This document shows, piece by piece, positions 6,757 through 10,765 of a DNA stretch of 10,821 bases. The position numbers and the translations under genes are program-made. The DNA comes from a virus. Location of the stretch: UHGV virus genome UHGV-1747927, one strand, 5' to 3'. The notes beneath the pieces are model-generated. The model searched no databases and was not told the DNA's origin. It saw only the letters and a program-made list of their open reading frames with translations. How positions within the stretch are numbered: position 1 is the stretch's first letter; each line of letters starts with the position of its first letter.

Positions 6757-7473
<717 letters not shown>

Positions 7474-8272: not shown

Positions 8273-8299
8273 CCCGGCCACAGAGCCGGGTTTTCTTTG
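8273..8299 (+). terminator. Intrinsic terminator ending the cI-KilA-N transcription unit
   Basis: CCCGGC, loop CACAGA, GCCGGG, followed by TTTTCTTTG. It lies directly after the stop at 8262-8264. Confidence 0.6.
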
Positions 8300-8450: not shown

Positions 8451-8513
8451 AACCATCTGCGGTGATGAATTATCTCTAGCGGTGTTGACATAAATACCAC
8501 TGGCGGTGATACT
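8451..8513 (+). promoter_or_regulatory. pL promoter with OL3-OL2-OL1 operators
   Basis: OL3 is AACCATCTGCGGTGATG (8451-8467), OL2 TATCTCTAGCGGTGTTG (8471-8487), OL1 TACCACTGGCGGTGATA (8495-8511). -35 TTGACA (8485-8490), 17-bp spacer, -10 GATACT (8508-8513). Nearly identical to lambda pL as recalled. Confidence 0.85.
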
Positions 8514-8581
8514 AAACACATCAGCAGGACGCACTACTCACCAGGGCGGTGAATATACAACGATTCAAATATGAATCTACG

Positions 8582-8596
8582 GCGCTGACAAAGCGC
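8582..8596 (+). promoter_or_regulatory. nutL boxB hairpin GCGCU-GACAA-AGCGC
   Basis: A 5-bp GC-rich stem with GACAA pentaloop about 60 nt downstream of the pL start. The same loop occurs in the nutR boxB. It matches the P22 boxB-left sequence as I recall it. No clear boxA was seen upstream. Confidence 0.5.
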
Positions 8597-8608
8597 AATA
8601 ACCAAAGT

Positions 8609-8710
8609 GAACTTTGGGGTGAATGCAGAAGCTAACCTTCTCGGCGGAGGCGCTTTGCAATGATTACGCTACCGGAGTTAGTCGCCCGGCTGTATTCACC
8701 GCCAAAGTTC
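8609..8710 (+). promoter_or_regulatory. Long-range leader stem enclosing about 70 nt upstream of N1 (candidate RNase III processing or translation-control structure)
   Basis: GAACTTTGGGGTGAAT (8609-8624) pairs with ATTCACCGCCAAAGTTC (8694-8710) with one bulge. The 3' arm ends 4 nt before the N1 Shine-Dalgarno (AGGAGG). The analogous stem before N2 carries compensatory changes. Confidence 0.45.
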
Positions 8711-8724
8711 ACCAGGAGGTCTAT

Positions 8725-9108
8725 ATGACACGCAGAACTCAGTTCAAAGGCAATTCACGTTCTCGTCGTCGTGAGCGTTTAAAGGCAAAGGCATTAGCTA
8801 ACGGCGTACTGGCCCGCGAAGAAGCAATAAGTTCAGAAGTATTACACCGCCCTACTCTAAGCAGAGCGCAGATTCAGGCTAAAGGTACTCACGAAACGCC
8901 TGAGCGCATAGAAGACGCTAAGCCAATTAAGTTCATGGCACAGGACGTGATCTGGCAACAGAAAGAATACAGACGCAATCTGGAGAGAGCGGCCATTGTG
9001 TACGCGAATGAGTTTGGACATAAGCAACCAGAAACTGGTGTATGTCTTCCAAATGTAGCTCTTTACGCAGCAGGATACCGGAAATCAAAACAACTGACGG
9101 CGAGATGA
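8725..9108 (+). CDS. N: N-like transcription antiterminator N1 (128 aa from the Shine-Dalgarno-supported ATG)
   Basis: First gene after pL and nutL. AGGAGG lies 6 nt upstream of the ATG at 8725. The N-terminal arginine-rich motif (KGNSRSRRRERLKAKALANG) resembles the P22-type ARM as recalled. The track start at 8623 would lie inside the leader stem and lacks a Shine-Dalgarno. Confidence 0.7.
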   Translation: MTRRTQFKGNSRSRRRERLKAKALANGVLAREEAISSEVLHRPTLSRAQIQAKGTHETPERIEDAKPIKFMAQDVIWQQKEYRRNLERAAIVYANEFGHKQPETGVCLPNVALYAAGYRKSKQLTAR

Positions 9109-9158
9109 CTTGTGTTGGTCGCCAGAAAATGAAATTAGGCAGCAAACCACTTATTTGA
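9105..9158 (+). other. 17-codon mini-ORF or fossil encoding a lambda-N-like C-terminus (MTCVGRQKMKLGSKPLI), -1 frame relative to N1
   Basis: Its ATG overlaps the N1 stop as ATGA. The peptide resembles the lambda N C-terminus (..ITCSGRQKIKGKSIPLI) as recalled. It is not in the N1 reading frame. Confidence 0.3.
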
Positions 9159-9166
9159 GGTGAGAT

Positions 9167-9637
9167 ATGACAAAATCATGGAGCGTACCTTTTCCTGAAT
9201 CAGAAACTGAACATGATGGAATGCCTGTTTTCTGGAGATTCCAAGCGACAGTTGAAGAAGATGGAATCAAAATATTCGCACTTCAATATATAGCTTTTCA
9301 TCAGACAGAGCATTATGCATGGTTGGTTCCTGCGCATTGGATTGTTAATTTTAAACCAGCACCAAATCAGTGGTTACAGGAATGGAAACAAAAGAGAAAT
9401 AGATATGCAATTAAGAAAGTAGCAAAAAATGCAGAAAGATCTTTTGCATTCCCAACGAAGAAACTTGCCATTGAGAGTTTATTGCGCCGGAAGAAATACC
9501 ATTTAATGAGAATCAAACAAGATTTGGCTGTTGTATCAACTCTTGTTGATGGGATGAAGAATATTGATACATCAACACCAGATATTGAATATAACTTTGG
9601 ACACAACCAAGAAACAGAAAATTGGGTATTCTACTAG
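9167..9637 (+). CDS. Hypothetical basic protein (156 aa), AT-rich cassette gene 1
   Basis: GAGGTG lies 5 nt upstream of the ATG. The composition is visibly AT-rich relative to the flanks and the C-terminal half is lysine/arginine-rich. No family recognised. Confidence 0.6.
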   Translation: MTKSWSVPFPESETEHDGMPVFWRFQATVEEDGIKIFALQYIAFHQTEHYAWLVPAHWIVNFKPAPNQWLQEWKQKRNRYAIKKVAKNAERSFAFPTKKLAIESLLRRKKYHLMRIKQDLAVVSTLVDGMKNIDTSTPDIEYNFGHNQETENWVFY

Positions 9638-9683
9638 GGCGCATAGCCGACTTTATTTTTGGCATAAACAATATGGGGTAAAA

Positions 9684-10010
9684 ATGAAAGTTTTAATGGT
9701 TTATGAAAATGTTCCAGAGTCGACTGAAATCTATATTTTTGATGCCAATGAAGATGAAGTTAACGATTTGAAATTGTCTCACGGAAATTACACAAATGCT
9801 AATTGTGATGAAAGTATCGAAAAAGCACTATCACGAGTTCTTGTCAGAATCAGTGATCCAGAACATTGTGATGATGATTGGCTTTCTTATTGTGAATCGG
9901 TAAAAACTGATGCAGGAAAATGGAGTAAAAGTAAAGTTGATAACTCAACCCCAATCATTATGAAAGATAGTGATATTGAAATGGTAATAATAACCGGAAT
10001 GATTATGTAG
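9684..10010 (+). CDS. Hypothetical acidic protein (108 aa), AT-rich cassette gene 2
   Basis: ATG at 9684 is preceded by GGGG. The track start at 9564 would overlap the upstream gene. The protein is Asp/Glu-rich and AT-rich. No family recognised. Confidence 0.5.
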   Translation: MKVLMVYENVPESTEIYIFDANEDEVNDLKLSHGNYTNANCDESIEKALSRVLVRISDPEHCDDDWLSYCESVKTDAGKWSKSKVDNSTPIIMKDSDIEMVIITGMIM

Positions 10011-10026
10011 GCTGCGAATAAGCACT

Positions 10027-10054
10027 GTGTATTCATTCCGACGAGTGAATACAC
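10027..10054. repeat. Perfect 9-bp-arm inverted repeat (GTGTATTCA, 10-nt spacer, TGAATACAC) 17 nt after the cassette stop
   Basis: Read directly. No U-tract follows on either strand, so it is not a canonical intrinsic terminator. Confidence 0.4.
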
Positions 10055-10400
10055 GGAGCAATGTCGCTCGTAACTAAACAGGAGCCGACTTGTTCTGATT
10101 ATTGGAAATCTTCTTTGCCATCCGAAATGCGGGAACTGAGTTTAACCAAACAGGAGGTGCCGTAATGGTGCACTAACGCGGTTAGACCGCAGCCGAAAGG
10201 CAATGCAGCAGTAATGATGCTGCCCCGAGTCGCGTAATGGCGAGCAGGTTTAGCAGACCGATGTGAGGGTAAATAAGGGAACATGCTCCGGAAAGGCAGC
10301 GCGAATGCCAGACGCGCACCGGTTATCAGCGGCTAATAAGCGACAGAGACTCAAGGGCATGAGCGCGCTCACTGCGAGAGTGTGAGTCAAAGAGTAGTTG

Positions 10401-10475
10401 GCTTTGGGGTGACGTGAAGTGCAGCTGCACGACGGCAACCGGAAGATAAGCACCCGGCGCGTCACCGCCAAAGTC
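10401..10475 (+). promoter_or_regulatory. Leader stem upstream of N2, analogous to the N1 leader stem
   Basis: GCTTTGGGGTGACG (10401-10414) pairs with CGTCACCGCCAAAGTC (10460-10475). The arms are the same as in the N1 stem except AAT/ATT is replaced by ACG/CGT, which preserves pairing. It is followed by the Shine-Dalgarno GGAGG and the ATG at 10493. Confidence 0.4.
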
Positions 10476-10492
10476 AATCATCGGAGGTCAAC

Positions 10493-10765
10493 ATGACAGT
10501 AGTCATTACTTATCTGGCTGACGATAACGCCAGAAATCGCCGCAGAGCACGCAGACAGGCTCAACGTGAACAGGCAATGCAAGAGCAGCGACTGGCGCGA
10601 AAAATTGCGCTGAAGCTCTCTGGTTGCGTCAGAGCAGATAAAGCAGCATCACTCGGAAGCCTTCGCTGCAAGAAGGCAGATGAATGCAGTGGAAGTATTT
10701 GCCTGCCAAACGTAGCCATTTACGCGGCAGGCTACCGGAAATCAAAACAACTGACAGCGAGGTAA
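10493..10765 (+). CDS. Second N-like protein N2 (90 aa) with a lambda-like arginine-rich motif and the same 21-aa C-terminal tail as N1
   Basis: GGAGG lies 6 nt upstream. The N-terminal ARM (NARNRRRARRQAQREQ) resembles the lambda N ARM (QTRRRERRAEKQAQ) as recalled. The C-terminal CLPNVAIYAAGYRKSKQLTAR is shared with N1. Confidence 0.6.
   Translation: MTVVITYLADDNARNRRRARRQAQREQAMQEQRLARKIALKLSGCVRADKAASLGSLRCKKADECSGSICLPNVAIYAAGYRKSKQLTAR

Follow-up and report, generated by a model that had tools for sequence, protein, structure and literature searches.

A candidate family of folded RNA modules headed by a mini-ORF, seen in the leader of a second N gene in a lambdoid phage

What does a noncoding spacer of about 480 base pairs (bp) carry when it separates an AT-rich gene cassette from a second N gene, N2, in the early-left operon of a lambdoid phage? 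The spacer in question occupies positions 10011–10492 of virus genome UHGV-1747927; "the window" means the whole stretch of that DNA which was analysed, 10,821 nucleotides (nt) long. A first-pass annotation, made from the letters alone, had noted nested palindromes in the spacer and had proposed a structured RNA, a protein-binding site or a recombination joint. Our comparison with related genomes shows a recombinant leader of three pieces, which we call segments A, B and C. Segment B appears to encode a folded RNA that opens with a very short open reading frame (ORF) and recurs in many mobile elements. Coordinates of all features are collected in Table 1.

Relatives of segment B were retrieved by an exact-pattern scan with its most conserved block, by BLAST, and with a second anchor. 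The exact pattern matched at least 120 stretches in IMG/VR and 64 stretches in species-representative genomes, the latter essentially all from Enterobacterales (Kluyvera, Citrobacter, Morganella, Xenorhabdus, Providencia, Proteus, Pectobacterium, Edwardsiella, Erwinia and others). Two pattern matches lie in assemblies labelled as Firmicutes, one a contig of a Vagococcus sp. (L165) and one a contig of a Bacillales metagenome-assembled genome (L184); these labels likely reflect contamination or mis-binning. Of the 5426 complete E. coli genomes compared by BLAST, 115 contain the module; it also matched 13 deposited phage records and 18 plasmids. No public record among the module's BLAST matches annotates an RNA there. 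Altogether the family numbers more than 160 distinct copies, carried by lambdoid phages, prophages and IncI-like conjugative plasmids of Enterobacterales. Segment B thus belongs to a widespread, unannotated family of folded RNA modules.

The structure model has 11 helices, including one pseudoknot. It was built from RNAalifold, mutual information and inspection, and was tested on a MAFFT alignment of 64 sequences. Standard pairs fill 93.2% of the model's pair cells, versus 30–37% when the 3ʹ partners are slid by 1–3 columns. Both sides have changed in 26 pairs (shuffle mean 18.6) and in 252 cells (shuffle mean 64.5), and the covariation score is 0.32, versus 0.04–0.075 for the slid controls. 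None of 500 shuffles reached any of these observed values. G·U pairs outnumber A·C pairs by 168 to 40, and the RNA is therefore read from the + strand, which is the strand of the operon. The earlier suggestion that the spacer could hold a structured RNA is strongly supported by this covariation in segment B, and we describe the module as a predicted compact, pseudoknotted + strand RNA of ~235 nt.

In the region of P5 to P7, column pair 131–193 reads C–G 48 times, U–A 13 times and U–G twice; the register of P5 and P7 in the window was set by eye, and MAFFT misaligns the window's subclass. The pseudoknot pair 10252–10287 occurs as five pair types, and other classes form the pseudoknot with UGC/GCA or CACAC/GUGUG. 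Compensated variants of P9 include GCGUA/UACGC and AGAACGA/UCGUUCU. P11 had seemed invariant because its block was the search key; copies found by BLAST or with the second anchor contain two independent double changes, CCCA/UGGG and CUCG/CGAG. In most relatives P12 reads GCCAC...GUGGC. Two further candidates, a long-range helix alternative to P2 and a P10 hairpin, show no double changes and are unproven.

The same alignment bears on the palindromes. The 12-bp palindrome TGAGCGCGCTCA does occupy 10360–10371, between the flanks GACTCA (10348–10353) and TGAGTC (10383–10388), and this part of the annotation stands. Taken alone the palindrome is not significant, being matched in 26 of 300 shuffles, and its status as a functional feature has not survived. 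It is composed of the 3ʹ strand of P11 (UGAG), CGCG, and the 5ʹ strand of P12 (CUCA). Most family members read TGAGCG(C/T)GGCCA at this site, which is no palindrome. What is conserved and compensated there is the two separate hairpins, P11 and P12, and the outer GACTCA...TGAGTC pairing is limited to the window's subfamily. Hence the idea that nested palindromes form a functional feature, or a DNA site for a protein, is not borne out, since they are not conserved as palindromes in the family. The 12-bp palindrome is an accidental juxtaposition of P11 and P12, incidental to the module.

The module opens with a ribosome-binding site and a mini-ORF. Statistics were taken from 140 distinct cores with a recognisable first hairpin, and in 139 of them a start codon opens an ORF of 1–6 codons. 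A Shine-Dalgarno (SD) sequence of at least 3 nt stands before it in 137 of 139 distinct family members, with an SD-to-start spacer of 6–9 nt. The start codon is AUG in 131 and UUG, AUC or AUA in the rest. The ORF has one codon in 22 cores, two in 29, three in 84 and six in four. Its peptide is not conserved, with at least 36 different peptides and 22 copies that are a bare start and stop; the last sense codons also vary (CAA, CAG, CAC, AAG, GUG, CUG and others), with no AUA or AGA in the common classes. Plasmid copies keep both the SD sequence and the mini-ORF. In 133 cores the start codon lies 12–13 nt 5ʹ of P2, so that the start is fixed relative to the fold and the stop floats. A messenger RNA (mRNA) helix whose start is 13–14 nt away from the P-site codon's first base is located just beyond the entry channel of the ribosome. 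Given this geometry, an initiating ribosome would abut the folded core without melting it.

Where is the module found? It is always in the sense orientation with its operon, and four kinds of context recur. It lies between nutL and an N-type gene in Hafnia phage yong1, in Stx2c phages and in at least 15 viral contigs; several of these loci have an rrn-type boxA, GCTCTTTAACAA, ~45 nt upstream. It also lies ~150 nt after Q, directly 3ʹ of a tR'-like terminator and often followed by a second terminator, as in mEp237, RothC and one E. coli prophage; in the Klebsiella phage RothC it adjoins two transfer RNA (tRNA) genes. Other copies follow spanin and lysis genes and precede head genes. The fourth context is the leader of the type IVB pilus operon of MPF_I conjugative plasmids from Pantoea, Rahnella and Pectobacterium (L197, L198, L199, L200 and L201); in the Pectobacterium plasmid pLPa1526 the module is 3ʹ of traA, a gene for a NusG paralogue (PF02357) and a traC-like ORF. 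What these contexts share is a long operon belonging to a mobile element, in which N, Q or a NusG paralogue has modified the polymerase. The description of the spacer as lying upstream of N2 is true of the window but does not hold for the module in general, copies of which also lie behind Q or lysis genes and in the pilus leaders of plasmids.

The gene that follows the module is not constant. The gap to the next ORF ranges from -8 to 462 nt, and in the Pectobacterium plasmid the next annotated gene is ~700 nt away; the downstream genes fall into 67 clusters. So variable a gap counts against the module controlling any one start codon. In RothC (L006, 2916–3252) and in a Providencia plasmid (L204, 2572–2877), hypothetical proteins are annotated across the module on the other strand; these are probably spurious gene calls.

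How did the module come to lie in the middle of a pL operon? The mosaic was resolved by BLAST against phage and E. coli collections and by aligning the window with mEp213, 933W, an Stx2c phage and HK620. The recombination joint that had been suspected proved to be three, at ~10056, ~10122 and 10387/10388, and the whole spacer is a recombinant leader of three pieces. Segment A is 98% identical to the DNA directly 3ʹ of L0079 in 933W, H-19B and many Stx phages. Its hairpin at 10022–10059 is identical in 933W, and mEp213 carries a different hairpin there (ATAGCAGA...TCTGCTAT); this is probably a transcript 3ʹ-end or processing hairpin of the upstream module. In 933W, the last part of segment A is an intrinsic terminator, GCCCTC-CAATGT-GAGGGC, with a T-run behind it. 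The window and mEp213 instead share a fusion of terminator and boxB at ~10122, where only the 5ʹ arm of the terminator is left, and the 933W terminator has been destroyed by recombination with a nutL boxB hairpin.

The nutL at this joint is defective. The boxB of the window reads CCAUC-CGAAAU-GCGGG versus CCCGC-CGAAAU-GCGGG in the intact HK620 type, so that two of five pairs are lost. A scan of 10011–10492 for boxA (CGCTCTTTA-like) found none, upstream of the element or elsewhere in the spacer; Stx2c phage and HK620 have GCTCTTTAACA at the boxA site, where the window has 933W trailer DNA instead. Because boxA is absent, N2 is without an intact nutL of its own.

The borders of segment B are clear from two relatives. 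HK620 is without it, and there the end of nutL (...GCGGGAAC) directly abuts CAAAGAG (CAAAGAGTAGTTGG...). The Stx2c phage has an intact nutL, then segment B, then the same leader as HK620. Segment B is therefore a discrete insert of ~250 bp, as the site is empty in one phage and filled in the other. Segment C is 99–100% identical in HK620, mEpX2, many P22-like phages and several hundred E. coli genomes. All three pieces of the spacer recur in other genomes. The module was inserted between nutL and the N leader stem, and was later moved, together with N2, into the middle of a pL operon by recombination between a terminator and boxB. It is not a group I intron: there is no RF00028 match at E ≤ 10, and the borders seen in the empty HK620 and filled Stx2c sites (exon ...AAC, insert ...GAGU) break the splice rules. 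Nor does it look like a transposable insert, its borders showing neither terminal repeats nor a target duplication. A scan of the window's spacer found no promoter of the module's own, and in the Q contexts the SD sequence of the module lies a mere ~10 nt past the upstream terminator.

A long stem or an intrinsic terminator follows the core in many loci. The leader stem of N2, a 20-bp helix, is present where it had been reported; it has a folding energy of -43.5 kcal/mol (z = -3.6), and none of 200 shuffles folds as well. In pL leaders generally the core is followed by a long helix, GCUUUGG-GG(N7)...(N7)CC-R-CCAAAGC, with a conserved bulged purine. A long stem with compensated arms stands 3ʹ of the core in at least 19 loci, in at least six arm variants, and its apical insert ranges from 41 to ~200 nt (41–198), the leader stem of N2 in the window being the shortest version. 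In the other contexts an intrinsic terminator follows P12 by 5–10 nt in most of the 29 loci in which a terminator was detected. The leader of N1, the first N gene of the window (8520–8724), has the same architecture as that of N2, with a stem at ~8602–8708 (GAACUUUGGGGUGAAU...AUUCACCGCCAAAGUUC). A P22-type boxB, GCGCTGACAAAGCGC, precedes this N1 stem at ~8574–8588, and CCAAAG-UGAA-CUUUGG could form an alternative small hairpin with the 5ʹ arm of the stem.

These leaders resemble that of lambda. One passage of PMC5725501, citing Wilson 1997 and 2002, describes the lambda sequence between nutL and N as highly structured and the translation of N as modulated by RNase III. Segment C and the N1 leader share the layout of a boxB hairpin followed by a long imperfect duplex before the SD sequence of N; the duplex, ~20 bp and lying between nut and the SD sequence of N, is that of a lambda-type N leader. 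The likeness does not extend to the letters, as these leaders show no sequence similarity to lambda, and compared with lambda nutL the window is missing boxA and has a broken boxB. Neither lambda nor HK620 has a counterpart of the 251-nt module that stands between boxB and the stem. The long stem at 10397–10478 agrees in position and shape with the RNase III-sensitive structure of the lambda leader, and by analogy may be a processing stem of the RNase III type.

In eight viral contigs (L080, at 1179–1225, and L052, L100, L118, L121, L123, L126 and L127) the apical insert of the long stem holds a near-copy of helix 11 of 16S ribosomal RNA (rRNA). These copies match positions 237–283 of the small-subunit rRNA model with E = 8e-8 and are 86–95% identical to E. 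coli. In L043 a T-arm-like sequence, GGUUCGACUCC, takes the place of the helix-11 insert. The helix-11 copy may be an RNA cargo or a decoy. The stem insert of the window has no significant match to the small- or large-subunit rRNA models.

Is the core a known RNA? Searching RNA family models, a check proposed by the first-pass annotation, gave no Rfam match on the module: Rfam 15 (4227 models) has no gathering-level match in the whole window, and the sole match at E ≤ 10 within 9950–10560 is to snoR35 (E = 5.8, 12.6 bits versus a cut-off of 40). A scan of 12 other module-bearing loci likewise gave no Rfam match on the core. ARAGORN found no tRNA or transfer-messenger RNA in the window, and none overlapping the module in 31 loci. 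A mimic of rRNA is not supported for the window's core, which has no match to the small- or large-subunit models and, in a blastn-short comparison with rrnH of E. coli, only chance matches of 13 nt; two sequences, the core motif AUCAGC...GCGAUGA and GAAGAUAAGCACCCGGC of the window, resemble 16S helix 11 and the base of helix 18 by eye only. The invariant CUCAAGGGCA (10350–10359) is perfectly complementary to 16S positions 837–846, in the apical portion of helix 26 (UGCCCUUGAG). Antisense pairing at this site was rejected, as 10 nt of complementarity arise in 8 of 300 shuffles and the variants of P11 preserve the hairpin instead. Literature searches found no paper on the invariant 13–16-mers, and none describing the module among the structured RNAs of lambdoid phages or minigenes; the Pas small RNA (a preprint) and two catalogues of RNA motifs are unrelated to it.

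Some known systems share part of the layout. Like HK022 put and the Bacillus EAR element, both of them cis-acting RNAs, the module is a sense-strand structured RNA near the start of, or inside, a long terminator-resistant operon of mobile or accessory DNA. HK022 put is ~70 nt long, consists of two stem-loops and replaces N. The module differs from put in that N, Q or a NusG paralogue is present, and in being ~235 nt long, pseudoknotted and equipped with a mini-ORF. EAR (epsC) is presumably among the Rfam families, and Rfam gives the module no match.

What could such an RNA do? We propose the following. The module RNA would be transcribed within the pL operon, and a ribosome would initiate at the AUG at 10165, with the folded core starting 13 nt downstream, at the mouth of the mRNA entry channel. 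The ribosome would stop after a few codons at most and would thus be parked on the 5ʹ side of a rigid fold. Ribosome and fold would together shield the untranslated leader, and the transcript behind it, from 5ʹ-end-dependent RNase E and from Rho. The adjacent long stem, elsewhere a terminator hairpin, would be a site of processing or 3ʹ protection that separates the module from the downstream mRNA, here that of N2. Several points favour ribosome parking: the start codon keeps a fixed distance from the fold, the peptide does not matter, the module lies in operon leaders, and processing-type hairpins accompany it. The ermC leader and cryIIIA STAB-SD are 5ʹ stabilisers that rely on a bound or stalled ribosome, and the module may be likened to these, and to obstacles to RNase E scanning, in having a strong SD sequence near the 5ʹ side of a structure and a coding capacity that would be irrelevant. 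Stabilisers of this type are short, and are not elaborately folded, mobile or conserved across phages and plasmids. To the whole explanation, of a three-piece leader, a structured module, and ribosome parking with processing, we give a probability of roughly one half; the parking mechanism on its own we think less likely than not.

A more general form of this proposal is that the modules are a new class of ribosome-docking RNA, in which a fold set against the mRNA entry site holds a ribosome, installed at the head of operons governed by N, Q or a NusG paralogue. Such RNAs might couple or replace translation on antiterminated transcripts, protecting them from Rho and RNase E, or might act in trans as decoys for ribosomes or ribosomal proteins; the helix-11 copies in the stems of some relatives would fit the latter. 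We consider a new class of this kind possible, but would not bet on it.

Several observations weigh against the parking explanation. Folded as a single sequence, the core of the window has an unremarkable energy (z = -0.9); the evidence for the fold is comparative. N- and Q-modified polymerases are already resistant to Rho. A module of ~235 nt with many invariant unpaired bases (AGGGCA, GCCARA, CCCGAGUC and GGUUA) is excessive for a plain stabiliser, and so much conservation outside the helices suggests that a protein, the ribosome or a ligand recognises the RNA specifically. A replicon usually has a single module, in an early or a late operon, which a trans-acting product would fit at least equally well. 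In the window, finally, the upstream nutL is broken, and the module may be a mid-operon passenger that is possibly neutral here.

The last points lead to the explanation that we take most seriously after ribosome parking, although we think it improbable on balance: a stable RNA that acts in trans, released from the operon transcript when RNase III cuts the long stem, or else shielded by a terminator hairpin. During lytic growth, or in plasmid donors, this RNA would serve as a decoy, sponge or ribonucleoprotein scaffold for a host factor, with the ribosome, one of its proteins, a translation factor and a defence nuclease as candidates, and the mini-ORF would bring the RNA to ribosomes. This would account for many invariant unpaired nucleotides that are independent of the flanking DNA, and for a single copy per replicon whatever the operon. 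The module occupies the niche of phage tRNA genes (in RothC it is beside two of them), is flanked by processing-type hairpins, has a clear mimic of 16S helix 11 in the neighbouring stem at eight loci, and is purine-rich on its strand, as stable RNAs are. The module is also like GOLLD and ROOL, orphan RNAs with many conserved unpaired bases that are linked to phages and sometimes lie beside tRNA genes, but is unlike them in its length (~235 versus 600–800 nt), its occurrence in Enterobacterales, its integral mini-ORF and its lack of Rfam homology. The core itself, however, has no significant likeness to rRNA or tRNA; its complementarity to 16S 837–846 is matched in 8 of 300 shuffles and is undercut by the P11 variants; and the pilus-operon context implies modest expression. 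A sensor or attenuator is unlikely. Here occupancy of the mini-ORF, or a ligand of the core, would switch pairings and so set terminator read-through, processing or translation of the next gene, the candidate switches being P2 versus a long-range CGC:GCG helix and a CAAAG/CUUUG hairpin versus the long stem. The order of SD sequence, short ORF and structure is that of leader-peptide control, a terminator is close behind the core in 29 loci, RNAalifold proposes a helix that excludes P2 (columns 84–86 with 315–317), and CUUUG at 10402–10406 can pair with CAAAG at either 10388–10392 or 10470–10474. But the alternative helices are without compensatory changes, neither peptide nor codons are conserved and the ORF can be a bare start and stop, the module has no constant downstream gene or expression platform, and in the phage contexts the polymerase is already resistant to terminators.

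Three further explanations fare worse. That the module is a regulatory leader specific to N, acting on N2 alone, whether as an extended nut site or as an operator through which N would regulate itself, is largely refuted by the distribution: no N is near the copies that follow Q or lysis genes or that lie in pilus leaders of plasmids. We hold it very unlikely. The copies placed between nutL and N, in yong1, in Stx2c phages and in 15 or more viral contigs, would suit this explanation, as would the GNRA-type hairpins GCC-GAAA-GGC and C-GAGA-G, which resemble boxB loops; yet HK620 has the same N and the same leader stem without the module, P3 is variable or absent in relatives, and the window has no boxA and a broken boxB. 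Slightly less credit is due to a minigene-type translational poison in the manner of lambda bar or CreT, in which heavy translation of an ORF of 2–3 codons would sequester a tRNA as peptidyl-tRNA and so slow protein synthesis in the host, and the structure would do no more than stabilise. The module shares with bar and CreT the order of SD sequence, AUG, one or two sense codons, stop and then a hairpin on a mobile element, and nearly every copy has a strong SD sequence and an ORF of 1–3 codons. A strong SD sequence and a very short ORF are general properties of minigenes. The module has no fixed rare codon: its last sense codon is neither fixed nor rare (Gln, His, Lys, Val, Leu and others), its 22 bare start-stop copies load no elongator tRNA, and a large conserved pseudoknotted domain (~220 nt) exceeds what a stabiliser needs. 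The least credible reading of all is that there is no RNA function, and that the region is a recombination scar, a set of palindromic DNA sites for a repressor or recombinase, or a hidden small protein gene. Three mosaic joints and a 12-bp palindrome do lie in the region, and two public records do annotate hypothetical proteins opposite the module. This reading is contradicted by the covariation: compensatory changes and the excess of G·U over A·C pairs indicate a + strand RNA, the palindrome is matched in 26 of 300 shuffles and not conserved as such, no frame is open across the family, and there is no Pfam or PHROGs match.

The remaining properties of the spacer and its surroundings are as follows. 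The window covers the immunity and early-left region of a lambdoid phage, and the gene order from pL is N1, the L0079 homologue, the ORF at 9684–10010, the spacer and N2. The pL of the window (within 8485–8724) is identical to that of lambda and has an oL1-like TACCACTGGCGGTGATA. A single pL operon contains two different N genes in tandem, the first (N1) being of the 933W/H-19B type and the second (N2) of the HK620 type; phage mEp213 likewise has tandem N genes, but with a different first N, and its spacer is 99% identical to that of the window from 10056 onward. Relative to 933W, the ORF at 9684–10010 is an insertion between the L0079 homologue and the trailer hairpin. A boxA-like GCTCTTTAC (one mismatch) at 9058–9066 lies inside the 3ʹ end of N1, among codons for VALYAAG; it is at chance level, as two or more matches of such quality occur in 168 of 200 shuffles.

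Much of what had been described in the spacer was confirmed. The contrast in composition with the AT-rich cassette is real, the G+C content rising from ~0.35 in the cassette (9150–10050) to 0.52–0.56 across 10050–10500 (~0.55). The perfect 9-bp inverted repeat GTGTATTCA/TGAATACAC is where it had been placed, at 10027–10035/10046–10054, and a perfect arm of 9 bp is reached in 8 of 300 dinucleotide shuffles. The statement that there is no convincing ORF holds: seven ORFs that lie within the spacer or overlap it, on either strand, gave no match to Pfam or PHROGs, although both collections recognise the flanking ORFs, and no frame is open across 163 distinct homologues, in which every reading frame carries a median of 3–5 stop codons. 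That the spacer holds more than chance features is settled by its conservation.

Table 1. Positions of the features discussed, in window coordinates
Feature	Position	Strand	Basis or remark
DnaB-type helicase, O, cII, cro	in the window	-	
Lambda-type cI	6760–7473	+	
Terminator	8273–8290	+	
Lambda pL promoter, TTGACA-17-GATACT	8485–8513	+	
N1, 933W-type N	~8725–9108	+	First gene of pL operon
933W L0079 homologue	9167–9637	+	phrog_1636
Extra AT-rich ORF, 108 aa	9684–10010	+	phrog_4658, unknown function
Segment A, trailer of 933W-type N-L0079 module, here behind the extra ORF	10015–10123	+	BLAST
Hairpin with perfect 9-bp core; arms extend to 17 nt (10022–10038/10043–10059); no U-tract	10022–10059	+	
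Hybrid hairpin remnant	10117–10133	+	5ʹ arm of 933W tL-type terminator (GCCCTCC...); loop and 3ʹ arm of HK620-type nutL boxB (CGAAATGCGGG)
Segment B, inserted module, 251 bp (TGAGTTTAACC...GTGTGAGT)	10137–10387	+	Empty site in HK620
SD sequence GGAGG of mini-ORF, 7 nt 5ʹ of AUG	10153–10157	+	
Mini-ORF ATG GTG CAC TAA (peptide MVH)	10165–10176	+	Start codon 13 nt before P2
P2 hairpin GCGG-UUAGA-CCGC	10178–10190	+	98% of cells paired, little variation
P3 hairpin GCC-GAAA-GGC	10192–10201	+	3/3 pairs compensated; variable, sometimes absent in relatives
P4 hairpin GCAGCA-GUAAUGA-UGCUGC, conserved loop GUNRUGA	10205–10223	+	6/6 pairs compensated, 95.5% of cells paired
P5, CCC 10224–10226/GGG 10267–10269, enclosing P6 and P7	10224–10269	+	
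P6	10230–10233/10240–10243	+	Within P5
P7	10247–10249/10257–10259	+	Within P5
Pseudoknot, AGC 10252–10254 (P7 loop) with GCU 10285–10287	10252–10287	+	Mutual information; 2 pairs compensated
P8, CCGG/CCGG, enclosing P9	10288–10322	+	
P9, GCGCG/CGCGC, conserved loop AANGCCARA	10299–10303/10313–10317	+	5/5 pairs compensated
P11 hairpin CUCA-AGGGCA-UGAG	10350–10363	+	Most conserved block of the family
P12 hairpin CUCAC-UGCGAGAGU-GUGAG	10368–10386	+	2 pairs compensated, 98% of cells paired
Segment C, HK620-type N leader	10388–10492	+	BLAST
N2 leader stem, 20 bp, 10397–10416/10458–10478; G10467 bulged; 41-nt apical insert	10397–10478	+	
SD sequence GGAGG of N2	10483–10487	+	Start codon at 10493 (feature 10483–10495)
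N2, HK620-type second N	10493–10765	+	PF25694 (N_peptide), phrog_271

The early and late leaders of lambdoid phages are among the best-studied regulatory regions, yet this family of modules has no Rfam model, no RefSeq or GenBank annotation and no trace in the searchable literature. It is distinguished by an obligatory mini-ORF joined to a pseudoknotted core, by the fixed spacing of start codon and core, and by its recurrence where mobile elements run long operons that are processively antiterminated. The module, which appears not to have been described before, is widely distributed and couples a mini-ORF to a fold in an unusual manner. Since gene callers place spurious hypothetical proteins on the module, an RNA model would clean up phage and plasmid annotation. 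If ribosome parking or a decoy role is true, the module would add an RNA component to the ways in which phages and plasmids protect or exploit their antiterminated transcripts.

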